From the NCBI RefSeq assembly GCF_056746865.1, contig NZ_CM163382.1: a DNA stretch of 64,000 nucleotides; one strand, given 5' to 3'. The position numbers and the translations under genes are program-made. Below, one piece after another: positions 40,407 through 43,673 of the stretch (positions are counted from its first letter, which is position 1; each line of letters opens with the position of its first letter). The notes below the pieces were generated by a model. The model ran no database searches and had not been told where the DNA came from. It was given only the letters and a program-made list of their open reading frames with translations.

Positions 40407-40697
40407 TTAGTGATTCAGACCGTTGCCGCGTCCGTCGAGAAAAACTTCCACGAGCAAGTCACGGGTATAAGTGCGCTCAATGCCGCGATGCAGATAAAGT
40501 CGTCCGCGTAAATTAGCTGATGCAGTCCAGGTACCATCTTTGCGTTTGACCAGCATTCCTGGCATGACCGCACCGCGATTAACGGTCTGCGTTCCGTAAT
40601 GTTGATGAACCATAAAAACTCCTGCCCGTAAGCTGGGCTGCTGAACATATAAAGACTTCTGCGCGTATTCAGGCGGTGGATGGCCGCCGGTTGTCAT
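40407..40697 (-). CDS. Hypothetical protein, first ORF downstream of the putative pL
   Basis: 96-aa ORF with GAGG RBS; no recognisable N/kil/cIII motif. Confidence 0.4.
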   Translation of the reverse strand: MTTGGHPPPEYAQKSLYVQQPSLRAGVFMVHQHYGTQTVNRGAVMPGMLVKRKDGTWTASANLRGRLYLHRGIERTYTRDLLVEVFLDGRGNGLNH

Positions 40698-40879
40698 AAC
40701 TAAGCCGCCTCGTTGAAGCGACTAAGGTATGAAATGTTGAGTTGATTTCAGCTGGTCACACCGACGTTCACGCGTCCGTTTCATCCCTCGCACTCCCCGA
40801 AGCCTGCTGAAATTCAAGCTGCGGATCTAAGCGGTCATCGCAACGGTGAATCAGGTAGTTGCCGTATCGTTGTGTTGTT

Positions 40880-40970
40880 GCGATGAACTTATTTAAAACT
40901 ATAGTTGTTTTATCGTCAACAACAAAAGTTGTTTTATTGGTTGTTTTAGATATAACTGGTTGTATTTAGG
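40880..40970. promoter_or_regulatory. Putative OL/pL operator-promoter region
   Basis: Repeated TGGTTGT/ACAACAA half-sites (caacaacaaaagttgtt, ttattggttgtttt, taactggttgtat) shared with the cI-cro intergenic region. Confidence 0.55.
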
Positions 40971-41057
40971 ATGGATTTATTTTGTGACTTGAATCGCATA
41001 GCGATAACTGAAGCGAGGTTATGGTGGTTTTTTTAACGGTGTGTGTGATGAGGGGAG

Positions 41058-41087
41058 GGCAAAAGAAAACCCGGCACGGTGGCCGGG
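41058..41087 (-). terminator. Rho-independent terminator ending the cI-distal operon (tImm analogue)
   Basis: cccggcacggtggccggg hairpin followed on the minus strand by a U-rich tract, directly after the 310-aa gene stop. Confidence 0.7.
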
Positions 41088-41095
41088 TAGCATCA

Positions 41096-42028
41096 CTATT
41101 CGATTTTTTTAACCATGTAGTTACGTCGTGATGTTCCTAATCTTTCATTGTGAATCTCAGAAACGCTTACTACGAGCGATATTCGTTCACCAACTTTATA
41201 TTTACTTTGAATTTCTCCTAACATATCAATCGGATAAGAAGCCTTTATTTTTCCAAGCTCGCTTGCAATCTCCAATTTCCCGTACATGGATAAAATAGCA
41301 AGTTCGCCTGATATATGCTCATCCGGTAGCTGAATGACCTTCGTTAAAGCTAAGCGAGCATTCAGTTTTTTTATATCTTCTGAAGAAATTGACACTTGTC
41401 TGGTACCATCACTTAAAGGTCCAATCCAAGTAAGATCAAAGTTAAGACTATATTTTTCGCACTCATTTATGATGTTTTTTAGGTTAGCTGTTGATTGCGA
41501 ACCAATTTCGGCAATTTTAGCCGTGAATGTTTCTTCATCAATGGATGAGAGTAGTGCAAAAATCTCCTTAACAGCATGACTGGATACTGTTTCGATGAGC
41601 TCGCAAGAACCAGTAGAAAAAGTAACACCTAACTTCGTCGAACCTGGACGCAAGTCTGCCAATCTCATGTCTAATGATTTTTTAACATCAATCGGCACAC
41701 GACTAGAATCTTTCCCAGATCCAAGTCGGTAAACTGCTTTCTGTACAAGGGATGCGAGATTACCTGAAATTACAGATAGAATATCTAACGGAATAGACCC
41801 GAAATCGACCAAAACACCTTTTAATCTCAACTCCATGAAATCACGTAAAGGATGTTGGTTATCGATTGCACGTTGTCTCTCTCGGAGATCGCTCAGATGG
41901 GAGTCAAGTGATCTAAATATAATGTCATCAGCAAATGATCTCCCCTTATTTTGAGCAAGCAGATCCACATCGCGTTGAATGAACGCAATTCGCTCCTTGA
42001 GGGAGTTGAATGTTTTTTCTTCGCTCAT
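41096..42028 (-). CDS. Hypothetical protein, distal gene of the rexAB-position operon
   Basis: 310 aa; AT-rich; start overlaps stop of upstream 157-aa gene (ATGA); no recognisable family. Confidence 0.6.
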   Translation of the reverse strand: MSEEKTFNSLKERIAFIQRDVDLLAQNKGRSFADDIIFRSLDSHLSDLRERQRAIDNQHPLRDFMELRLKGVLVDFGSIPLDILSVISGNLASLVQKAVYRLGSGKDSSRVPIDVKKSLDMRLADLRPGSTKLGVTFSTGSCELIETVSSHAVKEIFALLSSIDEETFTAKIAEIGSQSTANLKNIINECEKYSLNFDLTWIGPLSDGTRQVSISSEDIKKLNARLALTKVIQLPDEHISGELAILSMYGKLEIASELGKIKASYPIDMLGEIQSKYKVGERISLVVSVSEIHNERLGTSRRNYMVKKIE

Positions 42029-42498
42029 AACATTACCCTCACGAGGCCTTTAGGATTCTCCTTCCGATCAAAACCAAACCACCCTCTCCAGTAACTTCGC
42101 CTTTCACTATAATCGATTTCTGGATGATTTTCAGGCAGCAAAAGAACGTCAATGCTGTAGTTTTCTTTAATAAAATCTCTATTTAACAATGAGCTGACCA
42201 ATGGCATCAGCGTGTTTGGCAAAGAGTTTAGGGCCAAATAATCGACGACCACGAGTATATCTATGTCATCAGGTTCAGGTTTCTCTGTAGTGAATGAACC
42301 ATCGATCCACACTTCAGAGAAACATAGACACTGCTGATTAACAAGTTTAAATTGCTCAATAAGCTGTATAAAATTACAGTATAGCATACTTCTTCTAACG
42401 GATTTTGGGAAGGTGTCGACACAAAGAGACTTGATGCCATCACTATCCATATCATGAAATCCTGCTGTAAGAAGAGGTGGGAAGCTAGGCTTTTCCAT
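42025..42498 (-). CDS. Putative minimal nucleotidyltransferase-fold protein, proximal gene of the rexAB-position operon
   Basis: 157 aa; GS-x9-DxD motif (WIDGSFTTEKPEPDDIDILVVVD) typical of the Pol-beta NTase superfamily; AT-rich. Confidence 0.55.
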   Translation of the reverse strand: MEKPSFPPLLTAGFHDMDSDGIKSLCVDTFPKSVRRSMLYCNFIQLIEQFKLVNQQCLCFSEVWIDGSFTTEKPEPDDIDILVVVDYLALNSLPNTLMPLVSSLLNRDFIKENYSIDVLLLPENHPEIDYSERRSYWRGWFGFDRKENPKGLVRVML

Positions 42499-42579
42499 CC
42501 TAAGTCCTTGTTTATGCCATATAGTGTTCTATTTAATATTCTTGAAAAGAGTGTGCCTTAAAAAGCTACAGGCTAATTA

Positions 42580-43269
42580 TTAACCATGCTTCCTGTACGT
42601 CTGCGGCATGCTCCCAATAACCTTACCGAAGATGAACACCCGGTTCATCTCGTCTTTCTCGATCGGGTCCCACGGTGAGTAGCTTTTGTTATCAGAGATG
42701 ACCAGCAGCTTATCCTTCATCATTTGCAGGCGCTTTACATGGGCTGTGTCGTCGTACAGAAACGCATAGATACCATCACCGTCGAAAGATTTAACTGTGA
42801 TATCAACGAACAGCAGATCACCTGGTTCGATCGTTCCTGACATGCTGTCACCACGCACGTTAATGATGCGGATATTTTCCGCCTTCCTACCATCGAACAT
42901 GTGACGAGCATCGTCAAACGAGTACTCAACCGAGCGTAGAACTTCTACAAACTCACGGTTGATGACTCCCGGCCCAGCACTGACTTCTATATCAAGAACG
43001 TCAATCTTGAAGTATTTGGAATGGCTGACAGTTGATTGTATTGGTTGCACTGTACTGTCTGACATATTTCCAACGCCAGAAGATAACCATTCTGCGCGCA
43101 CACCCAAAGCGTTCGCGATCTCCACGATTTTAGTTGTTTGATTAGCTTTCCCTGTTTCGATTTTCTGAATAGCAGCCTGGCTAACCCCGACCAAATCCCC
43201 AAGCGCCTTTTGTGTAAGGCCTCGCGCTAATCTGGCTTCTTTAAGTCTTTCTGAGAGTGTTGTTTTCAT
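42580..43269 (-). CDS. cI: CI-like prophage repressor (HTH plus S24 LexA-like autopeptidase)
   Basis: 229 aa from MKTTLSERLKEARLARGLTQKALGDLVGVSQAAIQKIE; C-terminal S24 region (GDSMSGT ... K); divergent from cro. Confidence 0.85.
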   Translation of the reverse strand: MKTTLSERLKEARLARGLTQKALGDLVGVSQAAIQKIETGKANQTTKIVEIANALGVRAEWLSSGVGNMSDSTVQPIQSTVSHSKYFKIDVLDIEVSAGPGVINREFVEVLRSVEYSFDDARHMFDGRKAENIRIINVRGDSMSGTIEPGDLLFVDITVKSFDGDGIYAFLYDDTAHVKRLQMMKDKLLVISDNKSYSPWDPIEKDEMNRVFIFGKVIGSMPQTYRKHG

Positions 43270-43274
43270 AGTCC

Positions 43275-43373
43275 AAATGTACAACCAAGGTTTTATTCCA
43301 TCAAACGAAAATGGTTGTTGACTAAAAACAACCATAGTTTTAATCTTGATTCAAATTAACCACGGAGGTTGTT
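43275..43373. promoter_or_regulatory. Putative OR/pR/pRM operator region
   Basis: Inverted repeat ATGGTTGT-n9-ACAACCAT (43311-43335) plus further ACAACCA/GGTTGTT half-sites between divergent cI and cro. Confidence 0.6.
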
Positions 43374-43604
43374 ATGAACCCAGCTATCAAAACAGCGATC
43401 AATATCGTTGGTTCACAAAAGAAACTGGGCGCTGCTTGCGAAGTTTCACAGCAGGCCGTCTATAAGTGGCTTCACAACAAAGCAAAGGTATCCCCTGAAC
43501 ATGTCGGCAGCATTGTTACGGCTACTGGTGGAGTAGTGAAGGCATACCAGATTCGCCCGGATCTTCCGAAGTTGTTTCCACACACCGAAAAGAACGCAGC
43601 TTAA
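43374..43604 (+). CDS. Cro-like HTH regulator (YdaS-like)
   Basis: 76 aa; HTH KKLGAACEVSQQAVYKWL; first gene rightward of the operators. Confidence 0.7.
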   Translation: MNPAIKTAINIVGSQKKLGAACEVSQQAVYKWLHNKAKVSPEHVGSIVTATGGVVKAYQIRPDLPKLFPHTEKNAA

Positions 43605-43673
43605 ATTTCCATTTCACGCTCTTTAACAATAAGCAATCAACTTAACAGTCAATTCAAACTAAAGGAGTCAATT

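Follow-up and report, generated by a model that had tools for sequence, protein, structure and literature searches.

Does a single repressor, acting through one type of operator, control both the divergent promoters pR and pRM and the distant leftward promoter pL of the immunity region at positions 40,880 to 43,373 of a 64,000-nt stretch of DNA (NCBI RefSeq assembly GCF_056746865.1, contig NZ_CM163382.1; hereafter, the window is this whole stretch)? A previous reading of the letters and of their translated open reading frames (ORFs), made without database searches and called here the sequence-only reading, had answered yes from TGGTTGT/ACAACCA half-sites at both the putative right (OR) and left (OL) operator regions, and had proposed an immunity specificity distinct from that of lambda. 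We found that 38.5-46 kb of the window is the early region of a lambdoid prophage. The immunity region is very probably a lambdoid module in which a cI repressor, with a 434-like helix-turn-helix (HTH) domain and a LexA-like self-cleaving domain, and a divergently encoded YdaS-type Cro share operators of the form ACAAC-N4-GTTGT.

A 14-bp operator is predicted at OR and OL

We confirmed that the motif of the sequence-only reading is real and beyond chance. In the cI-cro gap, ATGGTTGT (43311-43318), a 9-nt spacer (TGACTAAAA, 43319-43327) and ACAACCAT (43328-43335) form the inverted repeat that had been described, and an additional half-site, ACAACCA, lies at 43281-43287. Left of the rex-slot terminator, exact copies of TGGTTGT begin at 40938 and 40957, together with the variants TAGTTGT (40902), AAGTTGT (40926) and ACAACAA (40919). 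What had to be given up was the idea that the operator unit is the inverted repeat ATGGTTGT-n9-ACAACCAT. The arms of this repeat belong to two neighboring predicted operators, one arm being the right half of OR2 and the other the left half of OR1, with the putative pR -35 hexamer TTGACT between them.

The operator unit is predicted to be the 14-bp palindrome ACAAC-N4-GTTGT, and we mapped five such sites. Three lie in the cI-cro gap: OR3 (43281..43294; ACAACCAAGGTTTT), within the pRM spacer; OR2 (43305..43318; ACGAAAATGGTTGT), of which one half is perfect and the other, ACGAA, is weak but conserved; and OR1 (43328..43341; ACAACCATAGTTTT), within the pR spacer. The other two are OL1 (40895..40908; AAAACTATAGTTGT) and OL2 (40919..40932; ACAACAAAAGTTGT), whose outer 5+5 positions are perfect and which is the sole 0-mismatch copy of ACAACNNNNGTTGT in the window. 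Between 8 and 12 of the 14 positions are self-complementary in each site, and the centers are 24 bp (OR3-OR2), 23 bp (OR2-OR1) and 24 bp (OL1-OL2) apart. Three related palindromes thus lie about 2.3 helical turns apart over pR and pRM, promoters that were called by hand, and operators of the same type lie at the distant pL.

Counted across the window, TGGTTGT/ACAACCA occurs 12 times, relative to 8.35 ± 2.9 times after shuffling, and 16 of 100 shuffles reach 12. Hence, there is no window-wide enrichment of the 7-mer; the sequence-only reading had named an occurrence no greater than in shuffled sequence as the result that would count against it, and taken literally this is the result obtained. 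The clustering of the motif is strong, with 5 of the 12 copies in the roughly 194 bp formed by the cI-cro gap and the segment left of the terminator (binomial ~2e-10), a p-value that is post hoc in that the motif was chosen from those very regions. Since the whole-window 7-mer count is uninformative for significance, we replaced it by a train-and-test scan, in which the three OR sites alone served to train a symmetric 14-mer matrix that was then run over the 64-kb window. The top two sites outside OR were 40895-40908 (18.2 bits) and 40919-40932 (17.0 bits), 24 bp apart, which are OL1 and OL2; both exceed OR2 (16.7 bits), and OR1 (20.1 bits) is the window maximum. Dinucleotide-shuffled versions of the window gave a mean of 0.07 sites at such a score (30 shuffles).

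Corresponding sites in a diverged relative delimit the unit. In Klebsiella phage ST101-KPC2phi6.1, the first 93 residues of cI are 62% identical and the recognition helix is identical, and its OR reads ...ACAACCATGGTTTTAT...CAAACGAAAATGGTTGTTGACTAA.ATACAACTAAGGTTTTAT...; hence, what does not vary is ACAAC and, after four further bases, GTT(G/T)T.

Other descriptions of the sites were tried and rejected. A symmetric 17-mer, AAAAC-N7-GTTTT, fits OR1 and OL1 but not the sites of relatives, whose outer three bases vary around an invariant ACAAC/GTTGT. Aligning all sites in one orientation as GGTTGT produced irregular spacings of 20 and 27 bp, which the 14-bp palindrome resolved. The inverted repeat scored as terminator-like on both strands in a scan, and it lies 5' of the pR and pRM starts and has only 3 G-C pairs; since its arms are also accounted for as operator halves, we rejected its reading as an RNA hairpin or terminator.

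Promoters and gene starts around the operators

The putative rightward promoter pR has a -35 hexamer TTGACT (43318..43323, plus strand) between the inverted-repeat arms and, 17 nt after it, a -10 hexamer TAATCT (43341..43346, plus strand); TTG of the former and TA...T of the latter are kept in 14 aligned loci. On the minus strand, the putative pRM -35 hexamer, TTGATG (43299..43304), directly abuts OR2, with TTGA kept in the 14-locus alignment, and the putative -10 hexamer, TACATT (43276..43281), ends 6 nt before the cI ATG, with both the TAnntT pattern and the distance to the ATG kept in the 14 loci; both hexamers were hand-called. Putative pL, also on the minus strand, has the -35 hexamer TTGACG (40914..40919), in an element, GTTGTTGAC, that stands beside OL2 and is invariant in 13 loci. 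Its hand-called -10 hexamer, TTAAAT (40891..40896), lies 17 nt from TTGACG and overlaps the end of OL1, and all diverged loci have a corresponding T/A-rich hexamer after OL1. The pL and pR sequences align without gaps over about 31 bp.

The repressor gene cI (42580..43269, minus strand) encodes 229 aa from its most likely start, MKTTLSERL, with matches to Pfam HTH_3 (5e-13) and Peptidase_S24 (1e-18). The S24 motifs are Ala-Gly at 98-99, GDSM at 140 and VKRL at 178, and the C-terminal domain matches UmuD' in a PDB search. In GenBank records of related phages (L002 2510-3265; L003 4119-4874), cI is a 756-bp coding sequence whose ATG lies inside OR1 (about window position 43335), and the Klebsiella phage record has cI shortened to 486 bp. 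The MKTTL start is kept across genera. From its position 6 nt past the conserved -10 hexamer, the start at 43269 is much more likely than that of the 756-bp annotation. Since the pRM -10 hexamer ends 6 nt before this ATG and the distance is kept across genera, a leaderless cI mRNA is implied, as in lambda.

Across a 104-bp gap, cro (43374..43604, plus strand) encodes a 76-aa protein with a YdaS-type HTH (Pfam YdaS_toxin 4e-17, P22_Cro 8e-5) and a weak match to the solved prophage Cro 3bd1. Hence, the region has the make-up of a lambdoid switch, a repressor with HTH and S24 domains and a divergent Cro gene across a short gap. The recognition helices of the two proteins are alike, VSQQAVYK in Cro and VSQAAIQK in cI.

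Within the cI coding sequence there is an operator-like 14-mer at 43124-43137 (codons QTTKIV), ACGATTTTAGTTGT, with 2 mismatches. Pectobacterium loci have ACAACCAAAATTGT at the same intragenic position (+132), and the likeness is inseparable from coding constraint.

The operators change with the recognition helix

A natural swap separates the operators from their surroundings. Phage PhiR30_1 matches window positions 40700-43031 at 97%, a stretch that takes in both immediate OL flanks, the terminator, both cargo genes and the C-terminal domain of cI. From residue 81 on, the two cI proteins are 100% identical; helices 1-3 differ, PhiR30_1 having the recognition helix VAQPTIWR in place of VSQAAIQK. 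Along with this helix, cro, OR and exactly the ~85-bp OL cassette are all replaced. The OL and OR of PhiR30_1 have GCTATTGC-type words in common, whereas those of the window have GGTTGT-type words in common, and the two immunity types have almost no 7- or 8-mers in common. The cI and Cro helices pair as VSQAAIQK with VSQQAVYK in the window and as VAQPTIWR with VAQPTVWR in PhiR30_1; this likeness within each type is what a common set of sites for both proteins would predict.

For the VAQPTIWR type, we noted candidate 14-bp operators (ATAGC/ATACG-N4-...), such as ATAGCAATAGCTAT and ATACGCAAGCGTAT, that occur both in the E. coli phage PhiR30_1 (L001 2680-2790 and 5075-5186) and in Providencia, Serratia and Rouxiella loci (L108, L109, L113 and L115).

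We found 345 relatives in IMG/VR, and 80 contigs with an identical cI N-terminal domain served as the linkage sample. The OL block (at most 4 mismatches in 75) was present on 73 of the 80, and 6 of the 7 contigs without it were too short to tell. It lies at no fewer than 12 distinct distances from cI, ranging from 932 to 3125 nt. Hence, the OL block stays linked to cI despite differing cargo.

A scan of species-representative genomes, which had the peptide GVSQAAIQ among its search patterns, returned 31 loci. The helix GV(S/T)QA(A/S)IQK occurs in Kosakonia, Klebsiella grimontii, Pectobacterium, Brenneria, Samsonia, Izhakiella, Serratia, Morganella, Xenorhabdus, Rosenbergiella and others, and these same-helix loci, from about ten other genera, have ACAACNNNNGTTGT with at most one mismatch at -25 from the cI ATG. 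This is the position of OR3, which is found there in every same-helix locus, often as a perfect palindrome such as ACAACCTAGGTTGT. Phage-type loci have a second ACAACNNNNGTTGT-like site at -72, the position of OR1 in diverged loci. Downstream of cI (+800 to +2726), a pair of sites 23-24 bp apart was present in 12 of 14 diverged phage-type loci, including the Klebsiella phage, and the two Brenneria loci had a single site at the threshold of one mismatch. The OL1 equivalent is of the ACAACTATAGTTTT type, 24 bp from OL2, in at least 12 diverged loci, and the core of OL2 is a perfect palindrome in 11 of 13. Six loci with other helices, from the same scan, lacked a ACAACNNNNGTTGT-type site near cI, and several of them have instead ATAGCAAT-type words, as in PhiR30_1. 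Hence, in the search of related prophages that the sequence-only reading had recommended, ACAAC-N4-GTTGT was kept at fixed offsets from cI where the recognition helix is the same.

An alignment of OR from 14 loci showed that the outer 5+5 positions of each operator, the promoter hexamers and the cro Shine-Dalgarno sequence are kept, whereas the central 4 bp and the spacers vary; the weak site OR2 is kept as the block aCgaa.at.GTt.T. Among E. coli sequences, a hand count placed polymorphisms at 1 of 30 outer operator positions, 3 of 12 central positions and about 14 of 62 others. Of 5426 complete E. coli genomes, 1521 have the segment spanning the cI N-terminus, OR and cro at an identity of at least 95%. 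When every match of window positions 43040-43620 is included, the total is 1727 places in 1523 genomes (about a quarter), with up to four per genome. Co-resident homoimmune prophages hence appear to be common.

What the analysis shows is where the sites lie, how they are spaced and conserved, and that they co-vary with the recognition helix. Together, the OR-trained scan, the PhiR30_1 swap and the cross-genus helix linkage support the proposal that one repressor specificity would serve both the divergent pR/pRM and the distant pL.

Phased half-sites beyond OL2 and a near-operator before cro

Two features of the region were unexpected, and they are the only ones: phased lone half-sites beyond OL2 and a near-operator over the cro ribosome-binding site. 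The lone half-site TGGTTGT at 40938..40944 (plus strand) is 12 bp from OL2, is without a partner half and varies in position among relatives. The second TGGTTGT, at 40957..40963 (plus strand), lies 31 bp, or three helical turns, from the OL2 start and is a candidate weak OL3; of 13 diverged loci, 10 have an ACAAC in the same orientation at -31 to -33 relative to OL2. In these 13 loci, there are 22 lone ACAAC words upstream of OL2, relative to 5.2 ± 2.2 in composition-matched shuffles, and zero in the opposite orientation (the loci used for the half-sites include window positions 40938-40963, L004, L085 and L097-L106). Their offsets cluster at -12/13, -21/22, -31/32, -42 and -52 and so recur roughly every 10.5 bp. 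The half-sites could be weak repressor anchors on one helical face, or they could reflect phased A-tract curvature upstream of pL.

The possible weak fourth operator, ACCACGGAGGTTGT (43359..43372), covers the cro Shine-Dalgarno sequence, has 1 mismatch to ACAACNNNNGTTGT and is centered 31 bp from the OR1 center. Its consensus in 14 loci is ac.AcGGAGGTt, and in 11 of these loci the distal half departs from ACAAC at no more than one position. This conservation may reflect common descent of the cro leader, and as RNA the same sequence could form a 5-bp hairpin over the cro Shine-Dalgarno sequence.

We think it unlikely, if worth keeping in view, that these half-site elements, which lie on one helical face with the full operators, are functional, with the repressor spreading from its strong sites along that face of the DNA by anchoring one subunit per dimer, or with an OL-OR loop being stabilized. 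If they are, added occlusion of the cro ribosome-binding region would be possible. To our knowledge, such a half-site spreading architecture has not been described for lambda or 434.

Model of the switch and competing explanations

By analogy with lambda and 434, we infer repressor binding, cooperativity, activation of pRM and the order of site filling. Both cI and Cro would recognize one operator type, consisting of five contacted, four central and five contacted bases, as in 434. OR1 sits in the 17-nt spacer of putative pR, OR2 overlaps the first base of the pR -35 hexamer and abuts the putative pRM -35 hexamer, and OR3 fills the pRM spacer. OL, 2.4 kb away past the defense cargo and the terminator, repeats the OR1/OR2 layout, with OL1 and OL2 flanking the putative pL -35 hexamer. 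Repressor dimers filling OR1 and OR2, and OL1 and OL2, would turn off pR and pL; because OR2 keeps one perfect half and a conserved weak half, cooperative filling from OR1 is likely. Repressor on OR2 may stimulate pRM, and at high repressor concentration OR3 would be filled and pRM turned off. Given the Ala-Gly, GDSM and VKRL motifs of the S24 domain, RecA-stimulated self-cleavage, at Ala98-Gly99, is the expected route to prophage induction. Cro would act on the same operators with the opposite preference.

Several points weigh against this model. Since the related loci have a common origin, some of their conservation reflects descent and not selection. The association of helix and operator comes from a helix-selected sample, although the controls with other helices were returned by the same scan. 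A sigma-70 consensus scan left pR, pRM and pL all uncalled at its thresholds, so their positions rest on hand alignment and conservation. The base-contacting glutamines of the 434 repressor are Gln28, Gln29 and Gln33; only one of the three is kept here, so structural analogy alone does not predict ACAAC. Beside the lone half-sites, no second half is recognizable that would make an OL3, and a simple dimer model leaves both them and the site over the cro Shine-Dalgarno sequence unexplained. Finally, we found no published binding, footprint or reporter data in the searchable literature.

The sites could be real and be read mainly by Cro or another early protein, or cI could need a partner. Cro does have its own HTH, with the helix VSQQAVYK similar to that of cI, and since the two proteins are swapped together in PhiR30_1, co-variation cannot separate one from the other. 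We nevertheless judge this very improbable: Pectobacterium loci of the rdgA type keep the -25 site and OL1-type sites with no cro start evident within the 140 nt upstream of cI, the stretch inspected for one, and the domain architecture of cI and its homology with 434 predict direct operator binding.

Alternatively, the likeness of OL and OR could stem from descent of duplicated pL/pR cassettes, or from low-complexity A/T-rich sequence, with no shared repressor. The gapless pL/pR alignment includes the hexamers, the window-wide count of the 7-mer is not significant, and the region upstream of OL2 is 40-65% A, which favors ACAAC-like words. However, OR3 and OR2 lie outside any such duplication and yet have the same palindrome, the outer 5+5 positions are conserved while the center varies, and, both in PhiR30_1 and at loci in other genera, motif and repressor recognition helix change together between unchanged flanks. 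The lone half-sites, too, are about 4-fold over composition-matched shuffles. Little credence is therefore due to either descent or composition as the whole explanation.

Scarcely credible is a single long operator, (A)TGGTTGT-n9/10-ACAACCA(T), spanning the -35 hexamer of pR (and of pL): its arms pair at 9 of 9 positions at OR, it has an analogue at OL (TAGTTGT-n10-ACAACAA), and both repeats are kept in relatives because the OR2-OR1 and OL1-OL2 spacings are fixed, but its spacer is unequal (n9 at OR, n10 at OL), its half-site centers, 16-17 bp or about 1.6 turns apart, fall on opposite helix faces and would not suit a 434-like dimer (the 434 homolog uses a 14-bp 5+4+5 site), and it leaves unexplained why OR3 stands alone at -25 as a perfect palindrome in many genera, why the outer halves of OR1, OR2, OL1 and OL2 are conserved and where the 24/23/24 periodicity comes from.

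Genes and cargo of the early region

The leftward genes of the early region, on the minus strand, are exo, bet, gam (Pfam Gam, 3e-65) and a kil-like ORF (40407-40697). After the kil-like ORF come the A/T-rich segment of about 85 bp (40885-40975), the terminator, two cargo genes, cI, the 104-bp gap and cro. Beyond cro, a YdaT-type protein occupies the cII position, with a weak and remote match to the solved CP-933P YdaT 8bt1 (E 2e-3), followed by O- and P-like replication genes.

The intrinsic terminator (41069..41088, minus strand) has a 7-pair stem with 6 G-C pairs followed by TTTCTTTT; it would close the pRM transcript of cI and cargo ahead of OL and is kept in PhiR34_1 and the Klebsiella phage. 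The two-gene cargo in the rex slot (41096..42498, minus strand) lies outside the switch proper and encodes a 310-aa protein and a 157-aa DUF6932 (Pfam) protein, which match the PADLOC candidate defense system PDC-M63 (B 4e-42, A 7e-43). Isolated phages with the same immunity are PhiR34_1, PhiR5_1, Turner and IdasGreatGrand; their rex-slot cargo differs, and same-immunity phages have other cargo (annotated HipA/HipD or GevT/GevA) or none.

From pL to the kil-like ORF (window 40698-40890, minus strand) there is no N-like ORF. A leader of about 190 nt from pL is common to the window and PhiR30_1 although their immunity differs, and it opens with a 9-bp stem, CAUCGCAAC...GUUGCGAUG. An Rfam scan of 37-47 kb gave zero matches at E 0.1 or better, hence no known put/nut-type RNA, and the fold of the 188-nt pL leader was unremarkable (z = -1.06).

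Significance of the operator map

The switch is of the textbook lambdoid type and will not surprise a specialist. The immunity type is common and apparently uncharacterized; a published description of its operators was not found in the searchable literature, where older subscription papers (e.g. RdgA work) are thinly covered. With a defined operator, ACAAC-N4-GTTGT, and a site map, sequence alone would suffice to type immunity groups, superinfection immunity among co-resident prophages would become predictable, and the widely propagated over-long cI annotation could be corrected. Since the rex-slot defense cargo would be under pRM control, knowledge of the switch also tells when the cargo is expressed. 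The repressor and operator would form a 434-like, probably orthogonal pair for synthetic circuits.

Comparison with known switches

The solved structures nearest to the cI N-terminal domain are the 434 repressor (1per/2or1 chain, E 4.5e-9, residues 5-68) and 434 Cro. The 434 operator is 14 bp long, with contacted outer 5+5 bases and four uncontacted central bases (reference ACAATNNNNATTGT; PMC1636474). Operator length and layout are alike in the two phages, and 4 of the 5 contacted bases are the same (window site ACAACNNNNGTTGT vs. 434 site ACAATNNNNATTGT). They also have in common recognition helices that are similar between repressor and Cro, variable central bases and an S24-type C-terminal domain. 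The differences are that the recognition helix is TTQQSIEQ in 434 and VSQAAIQK here, with only the Gln28 equivalent kept, that operator position 5 is T/A in the 434 reference and an invariant C/G in all strong halves here, and that Cro is YdaS/P22-Cro-like rather than 434-Cro-like. Hence, the window has a homologous DNA-binding domain and the 14-bp 5+4+5 layout, as judged in silico, and it is not imm434, because the recognition helix differs and position 5 is an invariant C. The halves of 434 operators are of the ACAAT/ACAAG type; written as ACAA-N6-TTGT, the 434 pattern is matched by OL2. On the grounds of the differing helix, position 5 and Cro type, heteroimmunity with 434 is likely.

The C repressor of Rhizobium phage 16-3 is another 434-like protein, with operators ACAA-N4-TTGT and ACAA-N6-TTGT, and is mentioned here as a lead only.

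Lambda has the same divergent cI/cro arrangement, three OR sites 23-24 bp apart, a repressor-proximal site in pRM and a leaderless cI start, as well as a cI operon with cargo and then a terminator, and an OL to the left that drives kil, gam, bet and exo genes. Unlike here, its operators are 17 bp rather than 14 bp and of other sequence; the window has no full OL3, lacks an N gene between pL and the kil-like ORF and has a YdaT-type protein in the cII position. No lambda cI chain was among the PDB matches at E 1e-3 or better, and the window thus falls outside imm lambda. The proposal of an immunity specificity distinct from that of lambda is borne out to this extent by operator length, operator sequence and repressor matches.

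The Cro and cII-position proteins belong to the YdaS and YdaT Pfam families, as in Rac and CP-933P. Their repressors, RacR and PaaR2, are not known to have an S24 self-cleavage domain, whereas that of the window is a full cI with one.

A cI homolog with an unchanged recognition helix is encoded at ten Pectobacterium loci and in Samsonia; its N-terminal domain shows 70-75% identity, and each locus has a perfect ACAACCTAGGTTGT-type site at -25. In these genera (L086-L094 and L114; L087 6001-7570), a promoter of the form TTGACA-N5-ACAACTATAGTTTT-AAAT, which corresponds to the pL/OL1 module of the window, precedes a Mor-like 116-aa gene. We take these loci to be rdgA/rdgB, the RecA-Rdg DNA-damage circuit in which RdgA is the repressor and RdgB the Mor-like activator of pectin lyase, an assumption that agrees with an 'rdgA' label in a phage record. 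Unlike the phage switch, the Pectobacterium circuit is chromosomal, domesticated and made up of two genes. If the assignment is true, RdgA/RdgB would be a domesticated copy of the cI-OL1-pL module of the phage in the window.

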